The translations under genes were made by a program, and so were the position numbers. From Bacteroidota bacterium (lineage in GTDB: Bacteria > Bacteroidota > Bacteroidia > CAIKAF01), in contig VGMT01000004.1 in assembly GCA_016866335.1 (NCBI GenBank), positions 15,294 to 79,293 on the forward strand: 64,000 nucleotides of DNA, given 5' to 3'. This document shows, in pieces, positions 23,399 to 53,420 of this stretch; the first letter of the stretch is position 1, and each line of letters begins with the position of its first letter. The notes under the pieces are model-generated. The model ran no database searches, had not been told where the DNA came from, and saw nothing but the letters and a program-made list of their open reading frames with translations.

Positions 23399-23432
23399 GC
23401 CCAAGGCCAGTACGATTGATTTATTTTTTTGT

Positions 23433-23573
23433 GGGGCGGCAGCCGGGCTTTCACAGGTAGTCCTCAGCAAAAGGGACTGGGGCAGCGGGCTTGCGTGGGC
23501 TCCTAAAGTCGCCTCCGCGCCACGCGCCCCAGACCCTTTCGCTTTGCGGGCTACCTTGTTCAATCCCTGCCGC
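23433..23573 (+). repeat. GC-rich structured intergenic repeat, family A, copy A1 (the most diverged copy)
   Basis: GGGGCGGCAGCCGGGCTTTC..GCGTGGGCTCCTAAAGTCGCCTCCGC..CAATCCCTGCCGC aligns over its full length with 25971-26115 and with the reverse complements of 27323-27467 and 53089-53233. Confidence 0.9.
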
Positions 23574-23634
23574 AAATGCCTCTATGTTAAAAACGGATTA
23601 AAAAAGAATTTTCAAAAAAAATGCGTTTTGCTCT

Positions 23635-23665
23635 TGACACTGAATTTTAACCTCGGTATCTTCGT
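23635..23665 (+). promoter_or_regulatory. Promoter of the unassigned RNA, copy 1
   Basis: TTGACA (23635-23640), with the TTG followed by 20 nt and then TATCTTCG (23658-23665; Bacteroidota -7 consensus TAnnTTTG). The spacing is identical to copy 2. Confidence 0.6.
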
Positions 23666-23670
23666 AGTTC

Positions 23671-23952
23671 ACTGGTGAAACGTTCTTTTTGCTTCGTCAC
23701 GTATCGGGGTGGCGAGGAACACTTCGGGTAACTTCATGATGTGAAGTTTGCTCTTTTGGGGAGTCTCAGAAATGCCTTCCTATTTTTTTAGGAAGGCGGG
23801 AATCTCGGGTATGAGACTGGGTTGGTGCGGCAGATCAGCCCTTTACATTTAAGAGAGTAAGGCAGTTTCAATTGGATTGCTCTCGTTTTAAGGTTTAGTA
23901 AAAACGACATCCAACCAGCAATTCGGTTCGGATGTAAACGTGTTTCTTTTCA
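23671..23952 (+). ncRNA. Unassigned structured RNA, copy 1 (~280 nt), family not recognised
   Basis: No ORF. Shares ordered sequence blocks and covarying hairpins with the minus-strand locus at 42.7-43.0 kb. Ends in hairpin ACATCCAACC-agcaattc-GGTTcGGATGT (23908-23936) followed by a U-rich stretch. Confidence 0.6.
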
Positions 23953-24079
23953 ACCCTATCCCAAGGGCCCTTTCCCACAACAGCCCCTCCAACCCCTCAA
24001 AGGTCCCAGCCAAAATTCAATAAAAATTACCCGCCCCCTTTTCACTATGCCGCATATTCAATACCTTTCGCCACTGCAT

Positions 24080-25578: not shown

Positions 25579-25965
25579 ATGGAAAAGCAGATCTTGCAAA
25601 CAGCGGCAGCGCCGCAGGCCATTGGCCCGTACAGCCAGGGTGTTGGGTTTGGAAACCTCTGGTTTTTTTCCGGGCAAATTGCCCTAGATCCCGAAACGGG
25701 AGAACTGAAAAACCAAAGTTTAGCGGTCGAGGTAGAGCAGGTGTTGAACAACATTGATGCCTTGCTAAGGGCTGCGGGTGCCGACTGGAGCGACATCCTT
25801 AAAACAAGTATTTTTTTAATCGACATGGCCGATTTTTCGGCGGTGAATGAAGCCTACGCCCGCCGATTCAATACCGCCTTTCCTGCCCGCGAAACGGTGG
25901 CGGTGGCACAGCTTCCCAGGGGAGCCAGGGTTGAAATCTCGGTGGTGCTGGCCCGAAAGGAATAA
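25579..25965 (+). CDS. ridA: RidA/YjgF-family enamine/imine deaminase
   Basis: MEKQILQTAAAPQAIGPYSQGV..FFSGQIALDPETGEL..PARETVAVAQLPRGARVEI. The ORF-track start at 25381 lies inside the ALDH gene. An alternative ATG at 25501 would add a signal-like peptide. Confidence 0.85.
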   Translation: MEKQILQTAAAPQAIGPYSQGVGFGNLWFFSGQIALDPETGELKNQSLAVEVEQVLNNIDALLRAAGADWSDILKTSIFLIDMADFSAVNEAYARRFNTAFPARETVAVAQLPRGARVEISVVLARKE

Positions 25966-25970
25966 ATTTT

Positions 25971-26115
25971 GGGCGGCAGCCGGGCTTTCTGGGCTACTCC
26001 GCGGTTGCCGAAAGGCTGGCCCAGCGGGTTTACGGGGGCTCCTAAAGTCGCCTCCGCACCTCGCGGGCCAGGCTTCGGCACCCTTGCGGGCTAGCCTCAT
26101 CAATCCCTGCCGCGG
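25971..26115 (+). repeat. GC-rich structured intergenic repeat, family A, copy A2
   Basis: GGGCGGCAGCCGGGCTTTCTGGGCTACTCCGCGGTTGCCGAAAGGCTGGCCCAGCGGGTTTACGGGGGCTCCTAAAGTCGCCTCCGCACCTCGCGGGCCAGGCTTCGGCACCCTTGCGGGCTAGCCTCATCAATCCCTGCCGCGG. Begins 6 nt after the RidA stop. Confidence 0.95.
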
Positions 26116-26185
26116 TTGCGGCGTTGTGGCCGTTTATCAAATACACCCCAAAAAAAGACACCCCCCATTTCCTTACCTTTGCCCC

Positions 26186-27145
26186 ATGTCAAATACAGCA
26201 ACCCGCCTAAAGGTCGTGTTCATGGGGAGTCCTGAATTCGCTTTGCCCTGCCTGCATGTGCTTCAAGAAGAAAGCGATCTGCTTGCGGTGGTGTCAGCAC
26301 CCGATAAGCCCGCTGGCAGGGGGAAGCAAATGAGCAGTTCGCCCGTTGCTACCTATGCCCGCGAACATAAAATACCTTTGCTGCAACCCGAACGGCTAAA
26401 AAATCCGGAGTTCCTACTCCAGCTAAAAAGCCTGCAGGCCGATTTGTTTGTGGTGGTGGCCTTTCGAATGCTGCCCGAAGCGGTTTGGAATATGCCGCCC
26501 ATGGGCACCTTAAACGTTCACGCTTCGTTGCTGCCTCAGCTTCGAGGAGCTGCTCCTATTCAATGGGCCATTGCACATGGCCTTAAGGAAACAGGCCTTA
26601 CCACCTTTCGGCTAAAACATGAAATCGATACCGGCGACATTCTTGAACAGCTTCCTTTGCCTGTAGCCGTCGATGAAACCGGGGGCAGTTTGTATGAAAA
26701 ATTGATGCAGGCAGCCCCGGGCCTCTTGCTCAACACCTTGAATGGGCTTGCGGCGAACACCCTTGTGCCTAGGCCCCAAGAATGGACGGGGGATGAAACC
26801 CTGTTGCCTGCCCCCAAAATTCAACGCCAACATGCTTTTTTGCATCCAGAAATGCCCGTTCAGCAAGCCGAGCGCTGGATTCGGGCCTTTGATCCCATAC
26901 CGGGCGCTGCCTTGGCCCTCGTATTGGAATCGGGCGAACGGATTGAAATCAAAGTGAAGCAGGCTCGGTTACCCAAAGATACAGGGCAATCAGGCCTAAA
27001 AGTGGCATTTGTTGACGGCGAATTGGAAATTCTGCGCTTGCAGCCCGCCGGAAAAGGCATTATGGATGCCGCGGCCTTTTTGCGTGGTCTTAGGCATCCA
27101 GTTCGGGGTTGGCAACCCTTGGCCGGCCCCCACGCCCAGCCCTGA
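26186..27145 (+). CDS. fmt: Methionyl-tRNA formyltransferase
   Basis: MSNTATRLKVVFMGSPEFALPCL..PDKPAGRGKQ..LNVHASLLPQLRGAAPIQWAI..TGLTTF. The 432-aa ORF-track version starts inside repeat A2 and is an artefact. Confidence 0.93.
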   Translation: MSNTATRLKVVFMGSPEFALPCLHVLQEESDLLAVVSAPDKPAGRGKQMSSSPVATYAREHKIPLLQPERLKNPEFLLQLKSLQADLFVVVAFRMLPEAVWNMPPMGTLNVHASLLPQLRGAAPIQWAIAHGLKETGLTTFRLKHEIDTGDILEQLPLPVAVDETGGSLYEKLMQAAPGLLLNTLNGLAANTLVPRPQEWTGDETLLPAPKIQRQHAFLHPEMPVQQAERWIRAFDPIPGAALALVLESGERIEIKVKQARLPKDTGQSGLKVAFVDGELEILRLQPAGKGIMDAAAFLRGLRHPVRGWQPLAGPHAQP

Positions 27146-27214: not shown

Positions 27215-27322
27215 GACACGCCCCGACATACCCCTCGTCCCTCGATACCTAATATTCCAACGAGGAATGCCGCACCCCGCCCCATGCAGGCATATTTAAA
27301 CGGTTGTTTTTTACGAAAGGCC

Positions 27323-27467
27323 CCGCGGCAGGGATTGATGAGGCTACCCCGCAAGGGTGCCGAGGACTGGCCCGCTAGGTGCGGAGGCGACCTTAGGAGC
27401 CCCCGCAAACCAGCTGGGCCAGCCTTTCGGCAACCGCGGAGTAGCCCAGAAAGCCCGGCTGCCGCCC
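27323..27467 (-). repeat. GC-rich structured intergenic repeat, family A, copy A3 (inverted orientation)
   Basis: The reverse complement aligns with A2 almost base for base. Confidence 0.95.
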
Positions 27468-27614
27468 TAAATGGTATTCTAAACCACCTTTCCCAAACCC
27501 CTTTATGTAGCTCAAATCCATGCTCTGTAGGGGCTAAGAGCCTGTTTTATGCCCACAGTTATTAACAAAACCCCCATTTTATTAACAAAATGCTTGATTT
27601 TACAAGGGGTTTAC

Positions 27615-31335: not shown

Positions 31336-34300
31336 ATGGCAAAGCGGAGTTCGCTGTTTTTTTTCCTCTTGGCCATTTCCCTATTTGGGATAGTCTTTCA
31401 GGCTAAGGCACAAACCAGCTGCTACACAAATCCTTCGATGGAGGGGCCTGCAGTGCCTCACCAGGTTCCCTCTCCTTGGCTGGCATGCTATGGTTCGCCC
31501 GACACCCAACCAGGAAACTGGGGCTTTACTCAGCCCGCCTCAAACGGTAATACCTATGTGAGTTTTCTACACTCCGGTCAAAGCCCTAATGGGTATAAGG
31601 AAGGAATGACTCAATTGTTGAATCCCTGCCTTCAGGGCGGTACAACCTACACCATAACGGTTGATTTGGCCTATTCCCCCATTTACAATACAGCAGGTCC
31701 GGGCAATTGCCCAAGTAGTTTTGCAATGTATGGAGGAAACTCTGCCTGCGCAATTTCTGAAACCCTGTTGGTGTCAGGCCCTATTACCCATCCCAACTGG
31801 GTAACGTACACCTTTACGTTTACCCCAACGCAGAATTTCTGTTACATTTCGTTTGCGCCCTACTTTACTGGAGCTTGTACAGGGTACATCAACATTATGA
31901 TTGATAACTTTACCTGTATTCAGCCTGCTTTAGTAAATGCCACTTCAACCCCTGAATCCTGCCCCGGGGCTTGCAATGGAACGGCCACGGCCAATGTTAC
32001 CCAAGGTGTTCCCCCTTACACGTATTCCTGGTCTCCGGGCGGTCAAACTACTCCCACCATTTCAAATCTTTGCCAAGGCTCGTACACCGTAACGGTAACC
32101 GACAACGTAGGTCAGCAAGCCAGCAGCACAACCACGGTTGGTGGTCCTCAAGCTTTCAGTACCACTGTTACCGGAGCCAATGTGTCGTGTTTTGGCCAAA
32201 ACAACGGTACGGCCAACATCGTTACCTTGGGCGGCACATCCCCTTACACCTATTCATGGGCTCCCTCGGGCTTAAACGTGTTTAACCCCGCTGGCCTAAG
32301 CGCTGGAACCCATGTGGTTACGGTAACCGATGCGGCTGGCTGCACCACGACCGATTCCATTTCGTTGACCGAGCCCCCAGTTTTGATTGGAACCATCGCC
32401 TCCTCAACTCCTGCCTTGTGCTTTGGTTCAAATTCTGGAACCATTACAGGTACAGGGTCGGGCGGAACACCTCCATATACCTATACGTGGACTCCAGGAG
32501 GAAACGGTCAAACCCTGTTTAATGCCGTTGCCAATCAGCTTTACACGCTAAACGTTGTTGATGCCATGGGCTGCTTGGCCCAAGCAACCCACCAAATTAC
32601 CCAACCCACGCAGTTGGTTGGGGGAATCATCAACCCCATTCAACCAAGTTGCTTTGGAAACAACAACGGCTCCCTTACCTCAAACGTATCGGGCGGAACG
32701 CCCCCTTATTCCTATTTTTGGAATCCAACAGGCCAAACTACAGCCCAAGCAACAAACCTTAGTGCGGGCAATCACAGCCTGATGATTATCGATGCCAATG
32801 GCTGCATGGTGAATGTCAGTTTCCCACTTAGTCAGCCATCCGTCCTTTCGGTCGGTATCCCTAGTTTTACGAATCTAACCTGCTTTAATTCTGCCAATGG
32901 CACCGCTAGTGCTATGGTCGGTGGCGGCACTCCGCCATACTCCTATTTATGGTCGCCAAGCGGGTCCACCGTTTCAAATCCAAGCAATTTGTCGGCAGGA
33001 ACCCATACCTTGACCGTAACCGATTCGCGCGGGTGCACCGCAACAGCAAGCCGAACGCTTACCCAACCTCCAGCCATTGTTCCTATTCTTCAACAAATGA
33101 CGCCCACCTCTTGCTTCGGAGGAAACAACGGTAGCCTTTCCGTTCAAGTTAGCGGTGGCGTGCCCGGGTATTCCTACAGCTGGTCTCCCAATATTGGAAA
33201 TGGCCTTAACCCTACCGGCCTTTCGGCAGGGAGCTATCAGCTTACCATAACCGATCAAAACAACTGCAGCCAATCGGCCTCTTATTCTGTTACTCAACCC
33301 AATCTGCTTCAGGCAAACGCCCAAATGATTTCAGGGCCACTCTGCCATGGCGATACCAACGCTGTTTTGCAGGCTTCGGCCCAAGGAGGTGTGGCACCTT
33401 ATGCTTACCTTTGGAACAACGGCCAAACAGGGCCCAATTTTGGTTCAGCAGGTTTAGGAACCTACTCTGTTGTTGCTACCGATGCCAATGGATGTACCGC
33501 TTCCGATACAGTCATAGTAGCGAATCCAGCCCTGCTTGACATTCAGTTTGCAACCGCTCAAATGCCTTCTTGCTTTGGTTTTTCAAACGGCAACGCTTCC
33601 TTTATCGGCAGCGGTGGAACAGGCGCTTTGTCGTACCAATGGATTCCTAACGGCGGAAACCAAGCCTCAGCAAACAACCTGCCTGCCGGCAATTACCAAT
33701 GCATTGTTACCGACGCCAATGGATGCAGCGATACCGGCTCGGTTGCCCTTACTCAACCCACAGCTCTTTCTATCGCTGCCCCAAGTTTGCAGCAGGTTAC
33801 CTGTTATGGTTTAAGCAACGGACAAGCTTCGGTTTCCGTTTCGGGTGCCACTCCGCCCTATTCTTACCTCTGGAATACTGGAAGCACAACAAATTCTACT
33901 TCAAACCTGGTTGCAGGAAACTATTCCGTGGTGGTTACCGATGCCCAAGGTTGCGTGGATTCAATTTCAGCCCAAATTACCCAGCCCCCCGTTTTGCAAA
34001 CTCAATTTGCAGCTTTCGACGATTCTCTATGTGTGGGGCAAACGTTTTCGCTCAGTGCCCAAGTTAGTGGAGGTACTCCCAACTACACGTATGCTTGGTC
34101 CAACGGCGCCAATGGCTCAACCGGAAGCGCTACCGCTGTTCAAGGCCAAAATTCCTTGTCGGTTACGGTTACCGATGCCCAGGGTTGCCAAAGCACCATC
34201 GGTGGCTCTGCCCTCGCTGGGTCTATCCCCCAAGCTCAATTTACGGTATCTCCTGTTTGCTTAGGTCAGCCGGTGAACATCGCTAATTCTCCCAGCAACG

Positions 34301-42100: not shown

Positions 42101-42436
42101 TTAAATTCCTTCTGCCCCTGTTGGGGGAATCAGGTCGCCCTTCTCGCTGCCCGAAATAAACTGATTTAAATAGTTTTTCATCCAATCGGCAATAAGCAGT
42201 GTGCGAATTTTGCCGGATTCAATAAAGGCATTCAAGTCCGTTTCTTCGGAAAATGTTATTTGATTGCCAACGTAAATTCTATGCCTGTCAATTGGAGCCT
42301 GGATGTTTTTTAGTTCTGTGGCTATTTGCTGACTGGTATCATAGTTGGCGGTAAAAAAAAGGGTGTTTCCTTCCACCCGCATATTAAAGTAATCGGCCAA
42401 CTGTTCTACGCTTGGATTAAATGTTTTTTTTGACAT
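42101..42436 (-). CDS. Hypothetical protein (111 aa), first ORF downstream of RNA copy 2
   Basis: Clean ORF 31 nt upstream of the sulfatase start on the same strand. No family recognised. Confidence 0.5.
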   Translation of the reverse strand: MSKKTFNPSVEQLADYFNMRVEGNTLFFTANYDTSQQIATELKNIQAPIDRHRIYVGNQITFSEETDLNAFIESGKIRTLLIADWMKNYLNQFISGSEKGDLIPPTGAEGI

Positions 42437-42639
42437 AAAACGAAAATTTAGATGAATTTAAGGGTTTGCAATTGGAGGATAGAGGCTCAAGAATCAGGCC
42501 AAAATTGAATTGGAAAATCATTCGTAGAATGGCTGGCTGGTGTTGTTCCATTGAGGGGTGAAATTCGCGAAACGCCAAACGCAAGAGTTCCCTTGAAGCG
42601 TTAACCTTTTAGGAAACGAACCAAAAACCAATACACCTA

Positions 42640-43006
42640 CCACCCAACCTAAAAGGCCGGTGGTCCTTCCTCACACAAATCCTCGTTGTCCCTCTAAAAA
42701 CTTGGTTTCATTAATGTCGTTTGATGCGCTTACTTCCTTCTGTTCCCGCATCAGTCTCTTTTAATTCAACCCTACATGTTAAGGGTGACCTGCCACTTCA
42801 CCCGTCTCATACCCAAAATTCCCGCCTTCTACTTCAATAAAGTTGCCTCTATCAATTTAGAAAGCATTTCTGAGACCCCCTGTGAACCATTGGTCCGCTT
42901 TTCAGCTTTCCTTTAATCCACAATCTCACTTCACTCCTAAAAGAACCCTAAGTGTTCTTCGCCACCCCAAATACGTGACGAAGCATCAAAACGTTTCACT
43001 AGTGAA
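42640..43006 (-). ncRNA. Unassigned structured RNA, copy 2 (conserved core 42714-43006; 3' boundary uncertain)
   Basis: The reverse complement carries the same ordered blocks as copy 1: TTCACTnGTGAAACGTT..GCTTCGTCACGTAT.GGGGTGGCGA.GAACACTT.GGGT; GGGG.GTCTCAGAAATGC.TTC; GAAGGCGGGAAT.T.GGGTATGAGAC.GG; AAACGACAT. Expanded variable hairpins lie between the blocks. Confidence 0.55.
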
Positions 43007-43009
43007 TTT

Positions 43010-43040
43010 CAAAATTACGAACTGGGGTTTCAAGTGTCAA
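43010..43040 (-). promoter_or_regulatory. Promoter of the unassigned RNA, copy 2
   Basis: On the minus strand: TTGACA (43040-43035), with the TTG followed by 20 nt and then TAATTTTG (43017-43010), a perfect TAnnTTTG. The geometry is the same as copy 1. Confidence 0.65.
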
Positions 43041-43221
43041 GTAAAATTCATGTTTTTTAACACATTTTTTACCCAAAAACAATTTCTACAGCTGCCTACA
43101 TTGCAATAACCCCTCTGGTTTCTCATTCAATTACCGACCTTATCTTCCCCAACCCTTACGGCTATGCCCATCCTGTAAATTTGCGAAGACAAAGTGCTAT
43201 CTTTGAGGCCAAATTGAAGCC

Positions 43222-53036: not shown

Positions 53037-53088
53037 AACCCATTCTAAGCTCCCTCTTTTTATTGGAACATGTCCGATTTATGGCCGC

Positions 53089-53233
53089 CCGCGGCAGGGA
53101 TTGAAGAGGCTTGCCCGCAAGGGAGCCGAAGACTGGCCCGCTAGGTGCGGAGGCGACTTTAGGAGCCCCCGCAAACCAGCTGGGCCAGCCTTTCGGCAAC
53201 CGCGGACTAGCCCTGAAAGCCCGCAGGCGCCCC
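53089..53233 (-). repeat. GC-rich structured intergenic repeat, family A, copy A4 (inverted orientation)
   Basis: The reverse complement aligns with A2/A3 over its full length. Lies about 50 nt after B2. Confidence 0.93.
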
Positions 53234-53420
53234 CGTTAAAAAAGGCCCTTTACCTCTATTTTTAATCGAGTTGAACATTGGTAACATGTAGTATATCAGT
53301 TGTTTAAACTATAAATGCCCCTAAATTCCGGCTCGAATTATATAGAAAATCCTGAAACCTTTGCCAATAAAGGGTTTTAAGCTGTTTATGGACCCTATTT
53401 CCCCCATTATTTATTAACAA

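Follow-up and report, generated by a model that had tools for sequence, protein, structure and literature searches.

Two diverged copies of one structured RNA gene lie in the 64,000-nucleotide (nt) stretch of Bacteroidota DNA analysed here, which we call the window. Copy 1 is found at window positions 23634-23976 on the forward strand (+) and copy 2 at 43040-42612 on the reverse strand (-). Each copy is an independent, promoter-bearing, non-coding and structurally constrained stand-alone RNA gene, one of a multicopy set. Together with their homologues the two copies form a new, uncatalogued family of structured non-coding RNA. In kind the family stands nearest the large ornate RNAs of bacteria and in genomic behaviour nearest the multicopy small RNAs (sRNAs) of Bacteroidota; it is a member of neither.

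Bacteria have few large RNAs with an intricate fold, and years of work on the known ones have not settled what they do. Bacteroidota are poorly explored for RNA biology. The family adds a large folded RNA from this phylum. It is unusual in that a genome may hold up to ~11 copies of the gene, each behind a promoter of its own, and in that the core of the RNA is arranged around invariant GGG tracts. So large an RNA with so many copies and a G-tract core is an uncommon combination; the distribution of the family is narrow, and its function is something we infer. With the boundaries, helices, signature block and ~25 members defined, the family is ready for direct testing.

Two window copies and a family beyond them

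A first-pass annotation, made from the letters of the window alone, had proposed at these two loci an unassigned functional RNA with its own promoter, conserved sequence blocks and covarying stems. The proposal is borne out: Rfam is blank, homologues exist elsewhere and the stems covary. Direct reading of 23600-23980 (+) and 43070-42610 (-) finds both elements where they had been placed. The copies align over ~360-430 nt with a mean column identity of 75%, and all the conserved blocks that had been listed are common to both, in identical order. A profile of the family scores exactly two sites in the window, copies 1 and 2, so that their resemblance exceeds what chance would give. Each copy folds more stably than all of its dinucleotide shuffles (z = -4.5 for copy 1 and -4.3 for copy 2).

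The promoter geometry said to be shared by the copies is exact: in both copies 20 nt separate TTG from the next box, which reads TATCTTCG in copy 1 and TAATTTTG in copy 2. The consensus for the -7 box of Bacteroidota promoters is TAnnTTTG. A sigma-70-style scan also picks up TTGACA-17-TATCTT at 23634-23662 in copy 1. Does the transcript encode a protein? Copy 1 had been called free of open reading frames (ORFs), and both copies do have stops in all three frames. We reject a small protein-coding gene on these grounds: no ORF is common to the family members, and the long ORFs of some subfamilies are not shared by others.

Among the stems first proposed from the comparison of the two copies, the outer helix GTCTCA/TGAGAC is present in both. 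The inner hairpin takes the form GCCTTCC-10-GGAAGGC in copy 1 and GCTTTCTA-26-TAGAAGGC in copy 2, and the next hairpin is GGGTTG-11-CAGCCC in copy 1 and GGGTGA-9-TCACCC in copy 2, all as described. A further equivalence, in which AACTTCA/TGAAGTT of copy 1 was matched with TTCTTTTA/TAAAGGAA of copy 2 as one variable hairpin, is wrong; the family keeps the pairing ACUUC/GAAGU instead.

No known RNA class accounts for the element. The 4227 covariance models of Rfam 15 give zero matches at the gathering threshold in the whole window, and no match at ten homologous loci. At E <= 10 Rfam returns only scattered 14-18-bit matches to unrelated families, none of them common to both copies. ARAGORN detects neither tRNAs nor a tmRNA there.

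The first-pass annotation had counted two copies. That number is correct for the window, but the family runs to between 3 and ~11 copies per genome. Pattern scans uncovered ~25 further copies in four metagenome-assembled genomes (MAGs). The core pattern GGCGGGAATNTNGGGTATGAGAC reached 8 loci in three uncultured Flavobacteriales/Bacteroidetes MAGs, a looser core pattern reached the same 8, and the 5'-domain pattern GGGGTGGCGANGAACACTTNGGGT reached 22 loci; with its 22 specified bases this last pattern matched family loci only, all in related MAGs. LaPlata_bin-1703 holds ~11 copies, casp15-mb.160 at least 7 (several cut by contig ends), ErkenSummer_bin-6618 three, and a MAG labelled Competibacteraceae another three. 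The window has its closest relative in ErkenSummer_bin-6618, where the aldehyde dehydrogenase is 95% identical; the next best stands at 63%. A single metagenome pattern scan brought up only a strain variant of copy 1. When spurious ORFs called across the RNA were compared with a collection of 5.8 billion proteins, they brought in no more than a handful of close relatives, from lake metagenomes and from one NCBI Flavobacteriales MAG; the relatives gained from the two protein-database searches are metagenome contigs, not transcripts. One subfamily locus is the same in the 10 lake-assembly contigs compared (of 24 read), save for two single-base variants. Homologues thus extend beyond the two window loci, to the ~25 copies in 4 MAGs and to lake-metagenome contigs. 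As judged from these sequences, the family is real and, as far as the searches reach, confined to a narrow, poorly sampled lineage of uncultured freshwater or lake Flavobacteriales-like bacteria.

Some loci, which carry L numbers here, deserve separate mention. The most diverged copies are L097, L098 and L102 of MAG SRP319275_co3_2, labelled Candidatus Competibacteraceae, and they have TAnnTTTG-type promoters. Because such promoters are typical of Bacteroidota, we doubt the label; this MAG has probably been either misassigned taxonomically or misbinned. One MAG holds five near-identical copies of one subfamily (L002, L007, L008, L095 and L099). Contigs break inside the copies at L005, L006, L092, L093, L094, L095 and L099, and at L003 of casp15 the left flank matches L104 of LaPlata and the right flank L004 of LaPlata. 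The copies act as breakpoints in assembly and perhaps as genuine recombination sites.

Architecture, covariation and transcript ends

Do the proposed helices covary? We counted pairs on hand-checked alignments, A4 (21 sequences) for the core and A5 for helix P7, and used shuffles (n = 500) and slid 3' partners as controls. In the core structure as specified (P3, P4, the P4 inner hairpin and P5), 93.0% of cells are paired, against 36-56% with the partners slid. Ten core pairs are altered on both sides (37 cells), and on four of five measures none of the 500 shuffles matched the core. Two-sided changes affect two pairs of P3 (for example C-G to U-A) and four pairs of P4 in A4, and P5 appears in the covariant forms GGGUGA/UCACCC and GGGGCG/CGCUCC. 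For P7 the paired fraction is 90.6%, against 21-41% slid; four pairs are changed on both sides and none of the 500 shuffles is as good. Covariation in the core and P7 exceeds both the shuffled and the slid controls, in keeping with the covarying stems first proposed.

The pairs also tell which strand is transcribed. G-U pairs make up ~100 of 559 paired cells and would become A-C mismatches if the opposite strand were read, so the G-rich strand is the transcribed one; the promoter agrees. Set against the covarying helices are parts that do not change. A 45-nt block (P1 and what flanks it) and the four GGG tracts of the junctions show no change in any member, however diverged, and helices elsewhere vary freely.

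Members measure ~310-420 nt from P0 to the downstream box and have at least eight helices. Their order begins with an A-tract, the promoter, 3 nt, hairpin P0, a pyrimidine-rich linker (ACGUUCUUU), P1 and P2. The A-run stands 4-6 nt 5' of the conserved ATTTGCCCTTGACA block in nearly all members; in copy 1 it covers 23613-23621 (+), where it may act as an UP-like element, and in copy 2 43052-43061 (-). The copy 1 promoter spans 23634-23664, with TTGACA at 23634-23639 and the TAnnTTTG-like -7 box at 23657-23664. That of copy 2, counted with its A-tract, spans 43010-43061, with TTGACA at 43035-43040 and the -7 box at 43010-43017. The arrangement of a TAnnTTTG-like box, 3 nt and P0 is constant in every member. 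From this constant geometry and the spacing usual in Bacteroidota, the transcript probably starts at or just before P0. P0 itself, TTCAC-TG-GTGAA at 23668-23679 in copy 1 and TTCACTAGTGAA at 42995-43006 in copy 2, keeps its pairing in the variants ATCACATGTGAT, ATCACTAGTGA, TTCATCGATGAA and TTCACTAGTGAA, and its symmetry survives changes from TTCAC/GTGAA to ATCAC/GTGAT and to TTCAT/ATGAA.

The linker is predicted to be single-stranded in copy 1 (ACGTTCTTTTTG, 23680-23691), its part ACGTTCTTT is conserved in most members, and no partner that it pairs with could be confirmed. A signature block follows, at 23692-23747 in copy 1: P1 CTTCGTCAC/GTGGCGAGG with loop GTATCGGG, then GAACACTTCGGGT, then P2 ACTTC/GAAGT. 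In the family as a whole, P1 has the consensus CUUCGUCAC/GUGGCGARG with loop GUAUUGGG, followed by GAACACUUCGGGU and P2 ACUUC/GAAGU. The 5' domain of copy 2 (42927-43006) runs from P0 through the linker to P1 at 42957-42983 and P2, CACTT/AAGTG, at 42927-42954. The P1-P2 block is almost invariant across all 17-25 members, and because its sequence barely varies, covariation neither supports nor opposes the P1 and P2 pairing; such constancy is noteworthy in its own right. After P2 comes P3v, an optional long hairpin with a four-base-loop cap that is missing only in window copy 1, L001 and L009. Folded alone, the P3v of every member that has one forms the same long hairpin, with energies between -14 and -21 kcal/mol, and it does so from no fewer than nine different sequences; in copy 2 it lies at 42881-42922, is closed by a GAAA loop and folds at -14.3 kcal/mol.

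The core opens with UGGGG and the outer helix P3, which encloses a junction GAAAUGC, P4 and a second junction GCGGGAAUNUNGGGUA. Copy 1 has it at 23757-23817: TGGGGA, P3 pairing 23763-23768 with 23812-23817, the junction GAAAT, P4 at 23774-23797, and the junction GGGAATCTCGGGTA at 23798-23811, which contains two invariant GGG tracts. The copy 2 core (42783-42876) has P3 at 42871-42876 with 42804-42809, P4 and its GCAA-capped inner hairpin at 42824-42865, the junction GGGAATTTTGGGTA at 42810-42823 and P5 at 42783-42803. In other members, too, the P4 inner hairpin is often capped by GCAA, GAAA or GUGA. P5 bears the loop motif GGCA and is followed by a U-rich stretch; in copy 1 the covarying GGGTTGG/TCAGCCC, the motif and the U-rich TTTACATTT take up 23819-23850.

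P6 comes next and contains a purine-rich insert that varies. When the members are folded one by one, all form a hairpin here, its base being either GRGAG/CUCUC or GAUGCGG/CCGCAUC. Copy 1 has the short form, GAGAG...CTCTC at 23853-23884, and the insert is long in other members. UUU..UGG follows P6, and in many members a small hairpin and a CCCAAGGGA box precede P7. P7 is bulged; after it come YRUUGG, which is conserved throughout the family, and further bases that are partly conserved. In copy 1, P7 (ACATCCAACC/GGTT(C)GGATGT) and the tail AAACGTGTTTCTTTTC occupy 23907-23951. The 3' domain of copy 2 (42612-42752) consists of P6 GATGCG/CGCATC at 42723-42752, P7 ACCACCGGCC/GGTTGGGTGGT at 42639-42664 and GTATTGG at 42628-42638; here the helix and bulge of P7 are retained through two-sided changes at two pairs.

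Two longer-range pairings fared less well. We reject the idea that the 5' linker pairs with the purine-rich arm on the 3' side, since cognate pairs do no better than non-cognate ones (ranks 0 to 15 of 17). RNAalifold proposed that GGGAA of a core junction may pair with UUCCC of a downstream CCCUUUCCC box; each of the five pairs is either invariant or altered on a single side, and several subfamilies lack the box.

Where does the transcript end? The 3' hairpin of copy 1, P7 (23907-23935), had been taken together with its U-rich tail for a terminator. The hairpin is present, conserved and covarying; a terminator role is not established, because P7 is a structural helix, its U-rich tail begins 8 nt after the stem and is limited to some subfamilies, conservation runs on beyond it (YRUUGG and further bases), and a terminator scan leaves P7 and the tail unflagged and flags P5 with its T-run as terminator-like in copy 1 instead. 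Downstream of P7 the family has a C-rich, G-poor tail, which in several subfamilies contains CCCUUUCCC or a palindromic box. In copy 1 this tail occupies 23952-24046, up to the aldehyde dehydrogenase start codon at 24047, and includes the palindromic box AAGGGCCCTTTCCC at 23963-23976; its CCCTTTCCC box is found again in several subfamilies. The tail has a GC skew of -0.48 to -0.65, the body of the RNA one of +0.15 to +0.32. Averaged over the family, G and C make up 29% and 16% of the body, and 15% and 30% of the 120 nt after it. Since a Rho entry site would be expected to have such a composition, termination is probably Rho-dependent and located in the tail, rather than at a canonical intrinsic terminator.

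The tails show other features. In the 95 nt at 23952-24046 there are complementarities of 10-13 nt to G-rich parts of the RNA, GGGTTGGTGCGGC with GCCCCTCCAACCC and, 14 nt before the ATG, CGGGTAACTT with AAATTACCCG; the CGGGTAACTT match looks weaker by eye in the orthologue L001, and base composition may account for the complementarity. In the window (23963-23976), at L003, L004 and L104, and in a five-copy subfamily (L002, L005-L008), perfect short palindromes (AAGGGCCCTT, AAAGGGCCCTTT, TTTCCCGGGAAA and CCCGGGAAATTTCCCGGG) stand ~30-45 nt beyond the 3' hairpin. Some are too tight for hairpins; proteins might bind the palindromes in the DNA, or the RNA might dimerise through them. The sole terminator-like site 3' of copy 2, GGGTGGAAGGAAACACCC followed by T8 at 42361-42378 (-), lies 58 nt into an ORF at 42101-42436. 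Either this 111-amino-acid ORF is spurious and the copy 2 transcript may reach the site, or the site is due to chance.

Possible functions

We favour, with low confidence and a probability of about 0.45 for the statement as a whole, a stable trans-acting RNA that is either the RNA part of an RNA-protein particle or a protein-sequestering RNA. Each gene specifies a large G-rich RNA with many helices, with a hairpin at its predicted 5' start and a probable Rho-type end in the C-rich tail. The invariant P1 hairpin block and the junction GGG tracts would be what a partner recognises, and the covarying peripheral helices, several of them with GNRA-type caps, would only stabilise the fold. The several gene copies would raise dosage or permit differential expression. 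A specific partner is suggested because the P1 block and the four GGG tracts stay constant while the other helices drift. If the RNA does belong to a regulatory RNA-protein particle, an unknown RNA-binding factor is implied in abundant, uncultured lake bacteria.

Several points weigh against this reading. The sample consists of four genomes of one lineage, and since these genomes are related, some of the changes counted as covariation are inherited from shared ancestry among paralogues and are not independent. The transcript ends and the stability of the RNA are predictions from sequence. No candidate protein partner is encoded nearby, in the flanks that were read. The internal P5 hairpin and U-tract could end many transcripts at ~190-250 nt. 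Finally, a spreading repeat would likewise show a high copy number and contigs that break within copies.

Comparison with known systems locates the family without placing it in any of them. Like OLE, GOLLD, ROOL and raiA, the RNA has a long multi-helix fold in which conserved junctions alternate with covarying GNRA-capped helices, and it is a stand-alone gene whose context reveals no obvious function. It differs in having no match to their Rfam models, in occurring in Bacteroidota as up to ~11 separately promoted copies, and in lacking any association with tRNAs or phages; it is also smaller than OLE, ROOL or GOLLD. The tRNA linkage of ROOL and GOLLD is missing at the 23 family loci examined, which contain only two unrelated tRNA-Leu genes. 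6S RNA, including 6S-Flavo (RF01685), is likewise a stand-alone gene for a presumably abundant structured RNA that could sequester a protein. In contrast to its one long irregular hairpin with a central bubble, the new RNA is a chain of separate hairpins with a three-way core, is multicopy and has no Rfam match. Oligomeric assembly is reported for ROOL, GOLLD and OLE in a preprint (bioRxiv 10.1101/2024.12.08.627333). It is possible, if doubtful, that the family is a new RNA class whose invariant G-tract core and invariant hairpin do a biochemical job so far undescribed for bacterial non-coding RNAs, the core being, for example, G-quadruplex-like or otherwise ligand- or protein-binding, or the RNA forming a self-assembling particle, at unusually high dosage (up to ~11 genes) in genome-compact freshwater Bacteroidota.

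The genes around the copies bear on two cis-acting explanations. Neighbour identities come from sequence reading, in part from Pfam. Copy 1 sits between an EXPERA-family gene and the aldehyde dehydrogenase gene, with fmt further downstream. The first-pass annotation had called this dehydrogenase ALDH8-like; what Pfam supports is membership of the general aldehyde dehydrogenase family (PF00171). Copy 2 is divergent from glyA and is followed by the 111-amino-acid ORF, which has no Pfam match, and then by sulfatase, sulfatase-maturase-like and acyl-CoA dehydrogenase genes. Both copies therefore point toward co-directional genes, as would a 5' leader or riboswitch of an aldehyde dehydrogenase operon (copy 1) and a sulfatase operon (copy 2). 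The aldehyde-dehydrogenase-linked copy is moreover syntenic across species, at five loci (the window, L001, L009, L003 and L004), a case of vertical inheritance. At L003 and L004, however, a gene on the opposite strand intervenes between the RNA and the aldehyde dehydrogenase gene, and at most other family loci the next downstream gene is convergent. At 80 other loci with relatives of the enzyme (nearly all labelled Bacteroidota) no RNA homologue lies upstream, except at the Erken MAG locus already known. The neighbours are unrelated housekeeping genes (tig-clpP-clpX, secA, rplS, lptB, nth for endonuclease III, fmt and glyA) and genes for a methyltransferase, a peptide permease, an OmpA-like protein and a NUDIX hydrolase. 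On the orientation of the neighbours and the 80 relatives we reject a leader of the aldehyde dehydrogenase gene, and a cis-regulatory leader of the two operons is very improbable, the downstream genes sharing no function. Because downstream genes are mostly convergent and neighbours functionally unrelated, we regard the element as a stand-alone gene. An orphan riboswitch-like attenuator is distinctly unlikely as well. In that scheme the 5' domain senses a ligand or factor and controls P5 and its U-tract as an internal terminator, and thereby whether transcription goes on through the 3' domain and then, yielding antisense RNA, into the convergent gene. The U-run after P5 is conserved (UUUUUUAU, UUUUUAUG and AUUUUUUUAA) and flagged as terminator-like in copy 1; the junction nucleotides are invariant, as in ligand-binding pockets; and the convergent downstream genes often begin ~0-70 nt from the estimated end of the RNA. 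Yet the P5 loop motif GGCA is itself conserved, several members, both window copies among them (UUUACAUU and UUAACAUG), have only a weak U-run, the 3' domain is a conserved and covarying structure in its own right, no anti-terminator pairing that covaries with P5 was found, and ~11 copies beside functionally unrelated genes misfit a single metabolite regulon.

The copy number invites two further explanations. Bacteroides has multicopy sRNAs, FopS and GibS, with canonical promoters and 12-15 copies per genome; the FopS RNAs are seed-type sRNAs of 65-70 nt that repress susC mRNAs and bind RbpB (PMC11697453). The new RNAs resemble them in phylum, in having many paralogues at dispersed intergenic loci (3 to ~11 per MAG, all of them having a TAnnTTTG-like -7 box with a TTG before it), and in a 5' part more conserved than the 3' part. 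They might then be sibling base-pairing sRNAs whose seed is the linker ACGUUCUUU or the G-tracts and whose variable purine-rich arm diversifies the targets. The linker is conserved and predicted to be unpaired, and the G-rich segments of copy 1 do find their 10-13-nt complements in the C-rich aldehyde dehydrogenase leader. We nevertheless consider this unlikely. At about five times the length of FopS, the new RNA is dominated by structure, and it is the hairpin and junctions that are most conserved, not a seed; the linker is only partly conserved and differs in the most diverged members, and neither a seed nor a target could be identified. In the 64-kb window the complement of the linker matches nothing but the gene itself, and the complementarities of copy 1 are not retained in L001 and are to be expected between G-rich and C-rich sequence. 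By impression, with no direct comparison run, we saw no sequence resemblance between FopS/GibS and the new RNA. Ranking lowest but for the leader, and improbable, is a selfish dispersed repeat: a non-autonomous element, mobile or recombining, whose structure in RNA or DNA serves its own spread and whose promoter is incidental. As with REP/BIME, BOX, Correia and MITE-like repeats, there are multiple dispersed intergenic copies of strong folding potential, up to ~11 per genome and five of them near-identical in one MAG; contigs end inside copies (L005, L006, L092-L095, L099), and flanks appear to be exchanged between L003, L004 and L104 at the element. Assemblers, however, produce contig breaks and chimeric flanks at any repeat. 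Neither window copy has terminal inverted repeats or flanking direct repeats (target duplications), BLAST against phage and plasmid records gives no matches, and three viral pattern scans were empty except for one chance match inside an apparent phage structural-protein ORF. No transposase, TnpB, IscB, reverse transcriptase or integrase was recognised among the flanking ORFs read, mostly by eye and not by a scan. In contrast to such repeats, the family has its own conserved promoter, its deeply diverged subfamilies keep their helices through compensatory changes, and its loci are orthologous between species.

Other features of the window

A 432-amino-acid ORF at 25847-27145 (+) matches the formyltransferase domain only from residue 126, and its orthologues in L001 and L003, which by eye resemble methionyl-tRNA formyltransferase, are 313-314 amino acids long. 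The true start probably lies ~120 codons downstream, in which case one copy of a separate repeat falls in the spurious extension. This repeat is GC-rich, dispersed and ~150 nt long (CGCGGCAGGGATTGA...GGTGCGGAGGCGACTTTAGGAGCCCCCGCAA...GAAAGCCCGGCTGCCGCC), has no match in Rfam, and occurs four times in the window: at ~23430-23575 (-), ~25960-26115 (-), ~27320-27470 (+) and ~53085-53240 (+). A fifth match to its pattern, at 31619, looks like chance. One copy of the repeat lies directly upstream of RNA copy 1, and related sequence is found just 3' of the RNA copies in L007 and L105.

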